Shown piece after piece: positions 1-5,577 of a stretch of DNA of 5,577 nucleotides (its first letter is position 1; each line of letters opens with the position of its first letter). The stretch is from a virus. Its lineage: Duplodnaviria > Heunggongvirae > Uroviricota > Caudoviricetes. The DNA lies in IMG/VR virus record IMGVR_UViG_2563366825_000014, positions 1-5,577 of that record; one strand, 5' to 3'. The notes under the pieces were generated by a model that saw only the letters and a list, made by a program, of their open reading frames with translations, was not told where the DNA came from and ran no database searches. A program made the position numbers and the translations under genes.

Positions 1-745
1 GACCTGCGGGGCCGGTTTCTCCCCGAGGGCCTGCGGGACCTGCCGGACCTGTTGCGCCGGGTTCACCTTTATCCCCTTTCGGGCCGGTTTGCCCTGCCGG
101 ACCCTGTGGTCCGGGTGGTCCGGGTGGTCCGGCCTCTCCACGTGGGCCGGTGTCACCTTTCGGCCCCGGCGGTCCGCCCGGGTCACCTTTATCGCCCTTC
201 GGTCCCTGTGGACCTGTTTCTCCCCGTTCTCCCTTTGGCCCCGGCTCACCTTTTGGTCCGACCGCCCCCGTTGCCCCGGCTGGTCCCTGTGCCCCTGTGG
301 CACCCTGTGGACCTGTGTCCCCCTTCTCGCCCGCCGGTCCCCGGGCATTCTCTGCCCGTTTCTTCGCTTCCTCTGCACTCGCCGCCGACGCTTCAGCACG
401 CTTCAGGATTTCCGCTGCCACCGCTTCCAGCTCTGCAAGCGCTTTCGGGTAATACTGCGCCTCATCCTGTTCCATCAGAAATTTATTCAGCGTTCCCGGC
501 TCAGAATCCGCCTTCACCAGAATGTCACCCACATACGACGGGGCGCACCCTTCCGTGTTCAGCGTCACCCGGTACCACCCCGGCTCCACATCAAAACTGT
601 AACTGCCGGTTTCCCCCGGCTGCCCCTGCGCCACCGTGGTGACTATCACTGTCTCTGTGGTGCGTCGCGCTTTCAGCTCTATGGTGCATCCCGGCACCGG
701 CTTCCCGGTGCCGTCCTTCAGCACGCCCGATATTCTGACTGTCAT
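1..745 (-). CDS. stf: Side tail fibre protein, lambda Stf-like: N-terminal domain (~135 aa) followed by collagen-like Gly-X-Y repeat region; partial, 3' end beyond window start
   Basis: ATG at 745..743 preceded by GGGAGA Shine-Dalgarno (plus 751-756 is its complement). Hand translation of the minus strand gives [38 protein letters not shown]..., which matches from memory the lambda Stf N-terminus ([17 protein letters not shown]...). From codon ~136 (plus 340 downward) the frame reads [113 protein letters not shown] and stays open to position 2. It is absent from the ORF track only because no stop lies inside the window. Confidence 0.85.
106..132. repeat. Perfect 3x tandem 9-bp repeat (GTGGTCCGG) inside the stf collagen-like region; encodes consecutive Gly-Pro-Pro / Gly-Pro-Gln triplets on the minus strand
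   Basis: Positions 106-114, 115-123 and 124-132 are each gtggtccgg. The unit length is a multiple of 3, so slippage would add or remove whole G-X-Y triplets in frame. Confidence 0.8.
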
Positions 746-758
746 AGATTTCTCCCAT

Positions 759-792
759 AAAAAAAAGCCCGCAGCAGTGACGCCACGGGCTT
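759..792 (-). terminator. Rho-independent terminator-like hairpin plus U8 tract, immediately upstream of the stf ribosome-binding site
   Basis: Minus-strand RNA reads AGCCCG-(14-nt loop)-CGGGCU followed by UUUUUUUU (plus 759-766 is an A8 run; stem arms are plus 766-771 and 786-791). The loop is longer than in a textbook terminator. Confidence 0.45.
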
Positions 793-825
793 CAGGACAG
801 TGTAACTTTACGTTTCCTCAAACGC

Positions 826-896: not shown

Positions 897-957
897 TCAG
901 AATCGGTATCCGGTGCCGACAATAAACGCATCCGTACGCCAGTCACCACGTCCTGAG
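897..957 (-). pseudogene. lom: Orphaned 3' end of lom (last 17 codons plus stop), separated from the rest of the gene by the IS insertion
   Basis: Minus-strand translation of 950..897 gives RGDWRTDAFIVGTGYRF-stop, which matches the lambda Lom C-terminus as I recall it (SGDWRTDGFIVGVGYKF). It is in frame with the 5' lom segment once the IS and one copy of the 7-bp repeat are removed. Positions 951-957 are the left copy of the target duplication. Confidence 0.85.
951..957. repeat. Target-site duplication, left copy (TCCTGAG)
   Basis: Identical 7-mer directly abuts both IS termini (951-957 and 3539-3545). The lom reading frame is continuous across the reconstructed empty site. Confidence 0.8.
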
Positions 958-1072
958 TGCGTATTACCGTGAAGGAGATCGGTGAGTAACATCGATGGAG
1001 ATCGGTTCGTGTCACTTTCACAGAACCGTTTTTAAATTACCTTCACTGATCTCCTTCGGTCAACGGAGATTG
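958..1072. repeat. Right end of the IS (downstream of istB): terminal inverted repeat plus sub-terminal repeats
   Basis: GGAGATC at 974-980 and 997-1003, its complement GATCTCC at 1048-1054, and a partial copy GGAGAT at 1065-1070. The 17-bp core TAACATCGATGGAGATC sits at 986-1002. Confidence 0.7.
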
Positions 1073-1792
1073 TATTTTCCGCATTGATTCTCCTTTAAGT
1101 TCGATCTTGATACTGCCATGAACCAGTCGATCTAGGATGGCATCCGCATGTGTGGAGTCTCCGATCATTTTGTACCAGTTTTCCACCGGCAACTGGCTCA
1201 CTACGATGATTGAGCCTCGTTGGTACATCAGATCCACTATTTCCAGCAGGTCGCTACGCTGTTCTGATGAGAGAGGTTCCAGCCCCCAGTCATCCAGAAG
1301 CAGCAGATCGCTATTATTCAGCCTGGTCAAAAGTTTGCTGTATCTTCCATCAGCATGCCCCTGATAGCACTGTTCCATCAGCGCTTTAAGGCGATAATAG
1401 TAGACCTTGTATCCCTGTCGGCAGGCATTATGACCAAGTGCACATGCCAGGAACGTTTTACCGCTGCCGGTGGCCCCGGTCAGTAAAATATTTTGTTTCA
1501 GGGTTAACCAGTTTCCCTGACTGAGTGAACGGATGAGGGCCCTGTCCAGCCCTCTATTGTTACGATAATCCAGCTTTGATAACTCAGCATTAAGTCTGAA
1601 CCGTGCATGTTTGATCAGACGCTCTGCCTTCCTGTTTTCACGGCAGGTTAGTTCTTCTGCTGTCAGTAATGACAGGCGTTCTTCGAAGCCCAGCTCCTGG
1701 TATGTGCCCGGCTGAGCAAGTTGCTTTTTAAGCGCATCACGGAAGCCGGTGAGTTTAAGTGCGGTCAGTTGTTCGTAAAGATGATTCATCAT
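1043..1792 (-). CDS. istB: IS21-family helper ATPase IstB (249 aa)
   Basis: Walker A motif GATGSGKT (in LLTGATGSGKTFLACALG) and Walker B-like LLLLDDWG are visible in the translation. Start lies 11 nt downstream of the istA stop, the usual IS21 arrangement. Confidence 0.93.
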   Translation of the reverse strand: MMNHLYEQLTALKLTGFRDALKKQLAQPGTYQELGFEERLSLLTAEELTCRENRKAERLIKHARFRLNAELSKLDYRNNRGLDRALIRSLSQGNWLTLKQNILLTGATGSGKTFLACALGHNACRQGYKVYYYRLKALMEQCYQGHADGRYSKLLTRLNNSDLLLLDDWGLEPLSSEQRSDLLEIVDLMYQRGSIIVVSQLPVENWYKMIGDSTHADAILDRLVHGSIKIELKGESMRKIQSPLTEGDQ

Positions 1793-1803
1793 TGGATCCC
1801 GTA

Positions 1804-3345
1804 TCAGTGGTAATACTCACTGCCGCGTACGTTTTCGTGTTCCATCGTGGATAACAGATCTGGTTTTGGATCCTGAACAGGTTGTTTATCCAGACCTTTT
1901 TCCAGGATCGATTTAATACCTGACAGACGCCATACCTTTGTTTTCAGAGCTCTTGCACATGCTGCATTAAGTCTGGCTTTACTGTATTTTTTATGAAGGT
2001 TCAGGAGTCCAAGGCAGAAGCGATAGCTTTGTTCCGGATGTGGACGAGAGTTCAGTATATGAAGCACATAACTATGAGTTTCACTGCCTATGTGCCCCGC
2101 CCATTCCAGAAGACGCTCTGGCGTCCAGGTGGCATGCTGTCGATGAGCTTCAGGCATGTGCTCGTTGCGGGTACTGTAGCCATAAGTACGCTTGCGCGGG
2201 TGCACAGCAACCTCCTGCCCCTGATTGAAGAGTCTTACCAGTTCTCCGGAGATCCATGCTTCCAGTTGCTGGCCTAACAGCGAACATGGAACCGAGTAGT
2301 AATGTTTGTCGATTTCCACGTGGTAATCGGCATGAACTCTGACTTTCTTCACCAGGGTGTAACTGTAACTGGCTTCAGGAAGAGGCTTCAGTGCGGGTTT
2401 ATCAAGCTGGATGAAGAGTTCTGCACGTGAATAACCCAACTTCTGCATTATTTTGTTATTCAGTCTTTCCAGCAACTCCCGAATGCGCTGATTAAGCGAT
2501 GCAAGGCTGTAGAAGATCTCATGCCTGATTCGGGCCATGATCCAGCGTTCAACAACCTGAACGCCAACTTCAGCTTTGGCTTTATCTTTCGGTTTACGTG
2601 GCCGCGCAGGCAAAACTGCGACATTATAATGCTCAAGCATCTGCTGGTAGGTAGGGTTAACGTCAGGATCATACTTACATGCCCTGGATGTGGCGCTTTT
2701 CAGATTGTCCGGAACAACAAGTTCAGGAACGCCACCCAACCACTGGAAGCAGCGAACATGACTCATCACCCAGTCTTCAAGCTGCTGAGACCAGGTGGCC
2801 TCTGCCCATGTGTAACTTGATGCCCCGAGAACAGCTACGATGACCTGAGCAGTTCTTATTTCTCCGGTCTCAGGGTCGGTAACGCCAACGGTAGGTCCAC
2901 AGTAATCAACGAAAAGTTTTTCGCCAGCTTTATGTACCTGACGCATTGATGGTGAAGTGGTTTTGAGCCATTCACGGTACATCCGGCAGTAATGGTTATA
3001 GCTGTAAAAACCGCCTGGATTACGCTCACAGTATTCTTCCCAGAGTAGCTGCAGCGTCACGCATTTATTACGCAGTTCCCGGTGTACTGTAGCCCAGTCA
3101 GGCAGAGAGTGCTTCTTCATCTTAACCTGGGTCTGAAGGAACGCATGTTTTAGTTTTGTATCATCCCATCCTGTAGGTAAGGGCCACTGCTTTATGCCAA
3201 GTTGAGCCGCCCGATTAGCATATCTGGATACAACGGAAGGGGAGATTGCAAGACTACGACCAATTTGTCGATGGCTGAGTCCAACACCGTATTTAAGCCT
3301 AAGAATTTCTTTAAGTTTTCTCATAGAAATTGGAACTGTTGGCAT
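1804..3345 (-). CDS. istA: IS21-family transposase IstA (513 aa), DDE-type
   Basis: N-terminal helix-turn-helix-like segment (LSHRQIGRSLAISPSVVSRY). Candidate catalytic acidic residues in FVDYCG, VVPDNLKSA and KAEVG contexts. AGGA-like Shine-Dalgarno 6-8 nt upstream of the ATG at 3345. Size and position directly upstream of istB. Confidence 0.93.
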   Translation of the reverse strand: MPTVPISMRKLKEILRLKYGVGLSHRQIGRSLAISPSVVSRYANRAAQLGIKQWPLPTGWDDTKLKHAFLQTQVKMKKHSLPDWATVHRELRNKCVTLQLLWEEYCERNPGGFYSYNHYCRMYREWLKTTSPSMRQVHKAGEKLFVDYCGPTVGVTDPETGEIRTAQVIVAVLGASSYTWAEATWSQQLEDWVMSHVRCFQWLGGVPELVVPDNLKSATSRACKYDPDVNPTYQQMLEHYNVAVLPARPRKPKDKAKAEVGVQVVERWIMARIRHEIFYSLASLNQRIRELLERLNNKIMQKLGYSRAELFIQLDKPALKPLPEASYSYTLVKKVRVHADYHVEIDKHYYSVPCSLLGQQLEAWISGELVRLFNQGQEVAVHPRKRTYGYSTRNEHMPEAHRQHATWTPERLLEWAGHIGSETHSYVLHILNSRPHPEQSYRFCLGLLNLHKKYSKARLNAACARALKTKVWRLSGIKSILEKGLDKQPVQDPKPDLLSTMEHENVRGSEYYH

Positions 3346-3400
3346 AGGTATCCTTTACCGGAATGGCAAAAGATACAGATCAACACACCTGTGAAGTTCC

Positions 3401-3538
3401 AATAACATTGATGGAGATCACTGAATAACAAAATGAGTCAAAAGTGATCTCCATCGATGTTATTCAGCGATCTGTTCAAATGTTATTACCCGATCTCGAT
3501 GGAAGTTATTGAGTGATCTCCTTTCATGAAAATACGCA
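3401..3538. repeat. Left end of the IS (upstream of istA): terminal inverted repeat plus multiple sub-terminal repeats, including a 22-bp inverted pair
   Basis: 3401-3422 aataacattgatggagatcact and the reverse complement of 3443-3464 (aataacatcgatggagatcact) differ at one position. Further GATCTCC/GGAGATC copies at 3413-3419, 3446-3452 and 3515-3521, and a partial copy at 3491-3497. Confidence 0.75.
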
Positions 3539-4084
3539 TCCTGAGGCTTCATAAGCCAGGTCGACCACGATATTTTCTGTCGGGTTAATCTGCACGCCTG
3601 CACTGTATGTCAGTGCGGTATGGCTGCGGCGTCCGCTGTCCGAACGGGTCAGGTGCTCCTGCTTTTTACCCTCATCTGACGTGAGGGTCACATAATCACC
3701 GGCAAAAGACGACACCCGGGCATACGACACTCCGGCCAGCGCATAAGCGCTGAACCATTCATTCACGCGCACAGATGGCCCCGCCATCACGCTGAACCAG
3801 CGGTTACGCACAGAATCCTCATGCCAGCGGGTATCGTTGTAGTGCGTTTTTTGCTCACCTTCAGCATTGGCATAACTGAATGACGTAATCAGCCCCAGCG
3901 TGTCCGTAAATTCATAACGGTATTTCACGTTAATCCCGTTCAGATCATCACTACCGGTAGTGTTCGTCAGGGCATGAAGATACCCCGCACTCAGCGTGGC
4001 CTGCTGCTCAGACGCCCATGCAGGCGCACCGGATACGGCCAGACAGATGGCTGCGGACAAAATGGCTGCACAAACTTTACGCAT
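3524..4084 (-). pseudogene. lom: lom-type outer-membrane protein gene (Lom/Ail/PagC/OmpX family), 5' 182 codons intact, C-terminus replaced by 4 IS-encoded residues (CVFS) and a stop inside the IS terminus
   Basis: Translation MRKVCAAILSAAICLAVSGAPAWASEQQATLSAGYLHA... closely matches the lambda Lom signal peptide and mature sequence from memory. GAGAGG Shine-Dalgarno upstream of the ATG at 4084. Lom homology ends at 3539; codons 3536..3524 lie within the IS. Confidence 0.88.
3539..3545. repeat. Target-site duplication, right copy (TCCTGAG)
   Basis: See left copy at 951-957. Confidence 0.8.
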
Positions 4085-4106
4085 AATTACCTCTCGCTTT
4101 TCTGCA

Positions 4107-4133
4107 ATAAAAAAGGCACCATTTCTGGCGCCC
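4107..4133 (-). terminator. Rho-independent terminator between J and lom (tJ-like)
   Basis: Minus-strand RNA reads GGCGCC-AGAAAU-GGUGCC (6-bp stem with one G-U pair) followed by UUUUUUAUU. Lies 19 nt after the J stop codon. Confidence 0.5.
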
Positions 4134-4151: not shown

Positions 4152-5577
4152 TCAGCTAATCGTGATGCCTGCAGTGGCTTTCTTCATCACCACAACCAGC
4201 AAATCGCTGATACTTGCTGTGGGATACCAGTTATTTACCAGCCATGCTGACACCGAAAACTCCAGTGTCATGTGACCGTGACCGGCAGGCATATCAATAA
4301 CGCCACTGTAAATCAGCGTATTATCCAGCGCGGTACGGTTATAAATTTCAGCACCGTTTTTCCGCACTATCAGACGGCATGAGGAGTAAATATCAGTATG
4401 CTCTCTCTCATGCTTAGCGCCACTGAATGCCACCGCCGGAATAACAATCTGCCGGTCAAACGGCTGATCGTCATAAACCCTGACGGTAATGGTCCCTGAT
4501 GGCCACCGCTCCGGTGCACGGGAATCCCGGGGGAAAGCTTTGCCCACTGTTTTAACGAGATCGCCTTCAATCTGGTTCGCGGACAGTTTTCCCAGAACCC
4601 GACAGTTCTCGTTAATCGTGACGTTGTTGAGCGTCCCGGAATTCGCATTCACGTTACCGCTGATATCAGCATTTCTTGCGGTCAGCCTGCCCTCCGGCGT
4701 CAGGGAAAACGTCGGGGGATTGCCGGACGAGGTGATACTCACCGCAAACAGCCGCTTCAGGAACACATCGTTCATGAACAACTGATTCCCCTGCGCCACA
4801 AATAACGGCGTGGTGTTGCCGTCCTCCGGGTTAATCATCGCAATACGGTCAGCCAGCAGCAGTATGTTGCTCAGGGGCTGGCCATCAGTATCCTCAATCC
4901 CCGCTCCAATACCGGCAACATAGGGTATGCCATTTTTTGTTTTCTGTACCTTCAGCATGTAAAGTGCAGCAAGGTCATCATTTGTGTCCTTCTGCACGCG
5001 CTGTATCTGCTGTATGGTGGCGCTCTGGTCCTCCAGCGTTTTACTGACCGTCTGTGTGATTTCATTGCGGGTTTCTGTGATGGTGGTCTGCATTTCCGCC
5101 ATCTCGTCCTTCAGCTTGCTGTTGTCAATCTCTGCCCACAACGCCTCTGCCAGATGTGTTTTTCCTATCTTTTCCCGGAAAAACTCCAGATAGCCCGCAG
5201 CATCATTGCTCGCCCGTCCACTGGCTTCCACAAAAGCAGATTTACCCACCAAGTTGACGCTGCGCACATAAAACCAGAAATCCTTTCCGGGCTTAATGTG
5301 CGGACCGGAGACACTCCACTGACTGCCGGTCCCCAGATAACGGGCAGAGGTTTCCACCTGTGCGGCGTCTGCAATTTTTGCCTCCGAAAACCAGAACTCA
5401 AACTGCACCGTCGGGTCATAAATGGTCAGTTTCGGGACTGCCGTTATCTGAAAATACCCCGGCGTCAGTTCAACACCGGCAGGCGCTGCCGGTGCGTTAA
5501 TCCGGAACGTGGTGGTGGCGGGTTCGCCCTGCTGGCCATAGCTGTTAATCGCCCTGACCGTCAGGGTGTATTCCCCG
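4152..5577 (-). CDS. J: Central tail fibre / host-specificity protein, lambda gpJ-like, C-terminal ~475 codons; partial, 5' end beyond window end
   Basis: Frame is open from the window edge (5576) to the stop at 4152. The M at 5408 in the ORF track is an internal GTG, not the start. Translation contains ...[27 protein letters not shown]...YLGTG...[17 protein letters not shown]...VAGIG...[19 protein letters not shown]...[15 protein letters not shown]...DMPAG..., matching the lambda J C-terminal region as I recall it. Position upstream of lom matches lambda gene order. Confidence 0.88.

Follow-up and report, generated by a model that had tools for sequence, protein, structure and literature searches.

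We propose that the lom gene of this lambdoid prophage is very probably a knockout caused by an insertion sequence, in which a complete copy of ISEc12 has parted the gene from its last β-strand and the β-signal on it and has left a null allele. The window, that is, the whole 5,577-nt stretch of DNA analysed here, carries on its minus strand, in this order, gpJ, the 5' part of lom, istA, istB, a remnant of lom and a tail-fibre gene. The lom ORF lies at 3524..4084 (minus strand) and is truncated to 186 aa, of which 182 are native and the last four, before the stop, are CVFS; in translation its tail reads ...VVDLAYEASG-CVFS. The native 5' part, codons 1-182 (3539..4084, minus strand), encodes strands β1 to β7, and the remaining codons with their stop (TGC GTA TTT TCA TGA, 3524..3538, minus strand) are supplied by the istA-proximal end of ISEc12, of which they are the outermost 15 nt. 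The ORF belongs to the Pfam family Ail_Lom (PF06316), its residues 1-182 matching the 199-position profile at positions 1-182 (E = 3e-114, 380 bits), and because the match stops there the last 17 positions of the family are gone. The initial annotation had stated that the last 17 residues of Lom are replaced by CVFS, which both the translation and the profile coverage bear out. It had also stated that the start codon, Shine-Dalgarno sequence and signal peptide survive, and all three are in place: an ATG at 4082..4084 (minus strand), a Shine-Dalgarno-like GAGAGG read from the sequence at 4090..4095 (minus strand) with a 5-nt spacer to the ATG, and codons 1-24 (4013..4084, minus strand), whose product resembles the Sec signal peptide of the Ail/Lom family, with MRK, a hydrophobic core and AWA before SEQ, as judged by inspection and homologue alignment.

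The inserted element, a cause that the initial annotation of the truncation had left unnamed, is a complete ISEc12 of the IS21 family, 2,581 bp long, at 958..3538 on the minus strand and thus co-directional with lom. It has the two consecutive genes of IS21 elements, a DDE transposase and an AAA+ helper: istA (1804..3345, minus strand) encodes 513 aa with rve and Mu-transpos_C_2 domains, and istB (1043..1792, minus strand) encodes 249 aa from its first ATG with an IstB_IS21 domain (E = 2.2e-67). As expected for this family, its ends, TGCGTATT...AATACGCA, start with TG, finish with CA and form imperfect terminal inverted repeats; the imperfect inverted repeat is 53 nt long, and subterminal motifs containing GGAGATC are repeated at both ends. 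Over all 2,581 bp the element is 100% identical to many copies annotated as 'IS21-like element ISEc12 family'. It is flanked by a short direct duplication of its target, again a feature of IS21 and ISEc12, which here is the 7-bp TCCTGAG, present at 3539..3545 on the lom 5' side, where it covers codons S181-G182, and at 951..957 on the lom 3' side. A published insertion of ISEc12 in tssM has a duplication of 5 bp (ACTGC) (PMC10711316), and the notion that 7 bp is anomalous for this element was considered and dropped after a survey of eight further copies, in which 5 bp prevailed and 7 bp recurred once (L007, CCCTGAC); in all, seven other insertions examined here have 5 bp. The two 7-bp duplications have the core CCTGA in common. 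Two plasmid copies of ISEc12 are flanked by no duplication. Since the element is undamaged, the duplication perfect and the lom remnant undecayed, the sequence evidently records a single, simple and recent transposition of ISEc12 into lom.

The part of lom that was cut off is still there. The 17 missing codons and the stop, encoding RGDWRTDAFIVGTGYRF, form an undamaged 54-nt remnant at 897..950 (minus strand), in the same orientation as lom, which accounts for half of loop 4, strand β8 and the β-signal. When 958..3538 and one TCCTGAG are excised in silico, the two pieces join into a 600-nt ORF for a Lom of 199 aa. At the DNA level this reconstructed ORF shares 99.8% identity with the intact lom of 22 complete E. 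coli records, and its product is identical at 199/199 positions to the annotated intact protein WP_032217644.1, the DNA differing by one synonymous change. The pre-insertion state is preserved in E. coli strain EC2 (NZ_CP058571.1), which, like 21 other complete records, carries an intact allele of the WP_032217644.1 type. EC2 shares the context of gpJ, lom and tail fibre, and its flanks are collinear with the window at 99.13% identity over 2,875 bp; unlike the window, it has no IS in lom, a single TCCTGAG at the empty site and a full β8 with the terminal YRF. The insertion has also created an ORF of 31 aa (MLLTDLLHGNTHSGRGDWRTDAFIVGTGYRF; 897..992, minus strand), which starts inside the IS end and runs into the lom remnant. 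A gene caller had annotated this ORF, with its Ail_Lom hit, in a public record (L003, 13093-13188); as it has no signal peptide, it is probably spurious and not meaningful.

What does the protein lose structurally? In phmmer searches the 199-aa Lom aligns end to end with λ Lom (PDB 9wso_C, E = 2.3e-45), and its alignments with Ail and OmpX extend to the C-terminal Phe of each. The AlphaFold model of the 199-aa form places β7 at residues 172-181, loop 4 at 182-189 and β8 at 190-198. On these strand positions the insertion site, in codons 181-183, is the tip of extracellular loop 4 in the model, and half of the loop and the whole of β8 are removed. The claim of the initial annotation that the terminal strand with its YRF is lost therefore stands, but the strand is not all that is lost: the model and the alignments to Ail and λ Lom indicate that about seven residues of loop 4 (RGDWRTD) go together with β8 (AFIVGTGYRF). 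Compared with λ Lom and with Ail and OmpX (PDB 3qra and 1qj8), all of which share family PF06316 with the Lom of the window, the window product ends after β7 and half of loop 4 and has neither β8 nor the terminal Phe. The lost segment is strongly conserved, with the C-terminus GDWRTDxFIVGxGY[KR]F or a near variant in 28 of 32 aligned homologues. The structure of λ Lom (206 aa) is in the PDB sequence file as 9wso chain C and absent from the Foldseek copy of the PDB, and a literature search for the publication behind 9wso found nothing relevant.

Strand β8 also bears the β-signal, G194-x-x-Y197-x-F199, as the reconstructed Lom ends in G-T-G-Y-R-F. The motif has been given as GXXΦXΦ and described as essential for efficient folding (PMC13067283), and also as ζxGxx[Ω/Φ]x[Ω/Φ] (PMC10945584). 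Lom β8 matches as well an older signature of outer-membrane proteins (PMC1634882), in which, counted back from the C-terminus, Phe comes first, Tyr is third and the seventh and ninth residues are hydrophobic. The truncated Lom ends instead in ...SGCVFS, with Ser as the last residue, so that a C-terminal GxxΦxΦ with terminal Phe or Trp is missing, and so is the full set of eight strands typical of the Ail/Lom family, β8 now being encoded 2.6 kb away. Both forms of the protein were modelled with AlphaFold from one shared alignment of 33 sequences. The 199-aa form gave an Ail/OmpX-like barrel (mean pLDDT 68.7, pTM 0.58) that Foldseek matched in the PDB to Ail (E = 1.3e-12, TM 0.81) and OmpX (TM 0.83). 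The 186-aa form gave no recognisable fold (mean pLDDT 44.9, pTM 0.28), and its search against the PDB returned no match below E = 0.5 and none that was barrel-like. The initial annotation had held that the barrel needs the missing strand to close, and the prediction of a barrel for 199 aa and of none for 186 aa goes the same way; the contrast agrees with loss of the barrel but is suggestive only and weak evidence, as the alignment was shallow, three of the five full-length models were also poor and folding stability is not what AlphaFold measures.

Based on these observations, we propose the following course of events. One intact ISEc12 would have landed in codons 181-183 of the lom gene of a lambdoid prophage, duplicating 7 bp of its target and dividing the gene in two: a 5' part extended by 15 nt of IS sequence (CVFS and stop), and a displaced 3' remnant of 54 nt. 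The 186-aa chain could still be translated and exported by Sec. In the missing β8, however, β1 would lack its partner, leaving the eight-stranded barrel open, and with the C-terminal GxxYxF-COOH gone there would be no β-signal for BamA β1 and BamD. Assembly into the outer membrane would then fail and degradation in the periplasm would follow, making lom a null allele. We infer this failure and degradation from the lost closing partner of β1 and from the BAM literature, which supports the expectation of the initial annotation that the product would be non-functional or degraded. The strand with the β-signal nucleates folding on BamA β1, which has been seen directly for OmpX (PDB 8QPV), whose β8 pairs with BamA β1 (PMC13067283). 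Removal of the terminal Phe from PhoE drastically lowers assembly, and the equivalent segment of OmpA is required for binding to the outer membrane (PMC1634882). The PhoE ΔF330 and OmpA β8 deletion mutants described there resemble the present case in that the C-terminal signature is gone, and in them assembly is severely impaired; they were engineered and their phenotypes measured, whereas the lom allele described here is natural, has lost the whole strand and is known from its sequence. DegS senses the C-terminal signature of outer-membrane proteins (PMC1634882), and because this is what has been lost the truncated Lom may be a poor trigger of the σE response, a point that is inference only.

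Expression of the truncated gene is presumed, and misfolding or degradation of its product and loss of the phenotype are expected from established BAM biology and a low-confidence prediction. A promoter scan found no σ70 consensus upstream of lom, so that expression of lom in the lysogen is without support from the sequence. E. coli genomes with lom-like sequence have a median of two copies, and a phenotype of the truncated allele could be hidden by further lom paralogues present beside it. The role of Lom as a 'lysogenic-conversion factor', the term used for it in the initial annotation, is itself thinly documented; the protein has been linked to adhesion, and its function as a whole is thinly documented too.

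Could the insertion be an artefact, with a short-read assembler having misplaced a repeated element beside a lom gene that is really intact? The window is one 5.6-kb contig between two runs of N in a draft scaffold (KE136652.1, E. coli GCA_000407805.1), ISEc12 is multicopy in E. coli, and the exact junctions have no counterpart in the genome collections searched: none of 5,426 complete E. coli genomes covered at least 80% of either of the two junction-spanning 207-bp queries, and an exact 36-nt junction pattern is absent from the GTDB species representatives. A single contig, however, holds both junctions together with a perfect 7-bp duplication, excision restores the reading frame exactly, and another ISEc12 copy also has a duplication of 7 bp. 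Moreover, two other independent assemblies encode the very same 186-aa protein, on a 1,620-bp contig of GCA_013520055.1 and on one ENA metagenome contig, both 100% identical to the window across the junction from lom into the IS before they end 20 and 54 nt inside the element. Because two independent contigs repeat the junction and the target duplication, we regard mis-assembly as extremely unlikely. Two other candidates for the same event were examined and rejected. NCTC9112, the best match to the whole window (99.1%), owes its score to aligned pieces that were joined; it has a closely related lom that is intact and an ISEc12 several kb away, which lies downstream of the tail-fibre genes and is flanked by a duplication of 5 bp, GCCTA (L001, 3001-5581), so that high similarity over the whole window does not imply the same insertion. 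A protein of 188 aa that is 100% identical (P0003, 41 members) comes from an intact allele that runs off the end of its contig, as its continuation ...SGRGDWRT shows. A very unlikely alternative of another kind grants the insertion and holds that the truncated Lom still assembles or works, as a seven-stranded open or oligomeric sheet, through an internal β-signal or by complementation from the 31-aa ORF. Some outer-membrane proteins do use internal β-signals (PMC10945584; discussion in PMC1634882), the halves of a split OmpA can assemble in vivo (PMC8987393), the ORF that reads out of ISEc12 contains β8, and the new tail G-C-V-F-S partly mimics GxxΦx, which makes weak engagement of BAM possible. 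But each half of the split OmpA needs a signal peptide, and even then assembly is very inefficient and most fragments are degraded (PMC8987393); having no signal peptide, the 31-aa product cannot reach the periplasm, and we reject complementation. An odd number of antiparallel strands, furthermore, cannot close a barrel that has both termini in the periplasm, and the absence of a barrel-like fold from the 186-aa model and the strong conservation of the C-terminal strand in intact homologues point in the same direction.

The remaining alternatives concern what the insertion does beyond Lom. The lom gene is preceded by the tail-tip gene gpJ, present with its 3' part (4152..5577, minus strand; Ig_J_second, Phage_Tail_Tip and Ig_GpJ_C domains), and followed by a side tail-fibre gene, present with its 5' part (2..745, minus strand; phage_tail_N and collagen-like repeats). 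One terminator-like hairpin with a T-run stands in the gap that separates the stop of gpJ from the start of lom (4114..4133, minus strand), and another in the gap from the original stop of lom to the start of the tail-fibre gene (764..793, minus strand); GC-rich hairpins of this kind on both sides of the original lom give it a moron-like layout. Window positions 1-360 (minus strand) are collagen-like G-x-y repeats of the tail fibre (Pfam Collagen), and as the contig breaks off within the repeats, where an assembly gap adjoins, these probably broke the assembly there. Because the element points the same way as gpJ, lom and the tail-fibre gene, its main effect might be a polar one on the downstream side tail-fibre genes, or else activation of the transposase by read-through, given that transcription from lom or from a phage late promoter would run into istA. 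The 2.6 kb inserted into a late operon whose genes all lie on one strand, and the hairpins that flank lom, speak for such effects. Late transcription in λ is antiterminated by Q and should read through; in addition, a polar effect would come on top of the truncation of Lom rather than in place of it, and we consider it unlikely to be the main consequence. An adaptive origin, in which loss of Lom as a surface antigen or as a block to lambdoid adsorption was selected, or in which ISEc12 prefers lom as a target, is in our view improbable. In its favour is a second, independent insertion of ISEc12 into another lom allele (73% protein identity) in NZ_CP123325.1 (L002, 3268-6453). This ST131-type lom::ISEc12 has the same element, orientation to lom and gene neighbourhood as the window, and PGAP annotates both lom pieces as pseudogenes, but it is a separate event, in which the element follows codon 125 or so and is flanked by a duplication of 5 bp, AAAGT, so that neither the site nor the duplication is related to ours. 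Of the 5,426 complete E. coli genomes, 342 were found to carry it with a junction-spanning query, and many of those listed are ST131. Further, overexpressed λ Lom stops λ-vir (bioRxiv 10.1101/2025.02.28.640651), and if Lom is a self-directed block to adsorption or an exposed antigen, its loss could be advantageous. Frameshifted C-terminal Lom variants are also present in databases (P0036, P0049, P0054 and P0056), with at least 30 and up to about 45 of the last residues out of frame and ending ...VSSWVSVI[NS]SD. Other Lom homologues (P0005, P0008 and P0010) have an internal tandem duplication of a VMAGPSVRVNEWFSAY segment, and together the frameshifts and tandem duplications suggest, from the sequences, frequent decay or slippage in the Lom gene family. 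Against selection, ISEc12 occurs in about a third of the complete genomes at a median of three places, 4,634 genomes contain lom-like sequence, the median being two places, and two hits in lom are expected by chance. Clonal inheritance probably accounts for the 342 genomes, as it does for tssM::ISEc12 in E. coli ST131 clade C, where the same element knocked out an accessory gene by simple insertion, in another target and with a duplication of 5 bp rather than 7 bp (PMC10711316). Accessory prophage genes, finally, decay neutrally. Because ISEc12 and lom are both abundant and tssM::ISEc12 is clonal in ST131, we prefer chance and descent, and it seems doubtful that lom is a repeated target whose inactivation recurs under selection in E. 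coli lysogens.

What are the implications of this allele? The lom::ISEc12 described here is a real, recent and textbook case of IS-mediated pseudogenisation of an accessory prophage gene; lom and ISEc12 are both already known and annotated, and no new biological feature is involved. The locus should be annotated as a lom::ISEc12 pseudogene and not as a 186-aa outer-membrane protein and a 31-aa ORF. As the junction sequence is missing from all the complete E. coli genomes searched, it is a handy lineage marker. More widely, the widespread and independent ST131-type lom::ISEc12 could motivate a census of lom decay. For the source strain, this copy of lom should be taken as null whenever adhesion or phage exclusion is ascribed to Lom.
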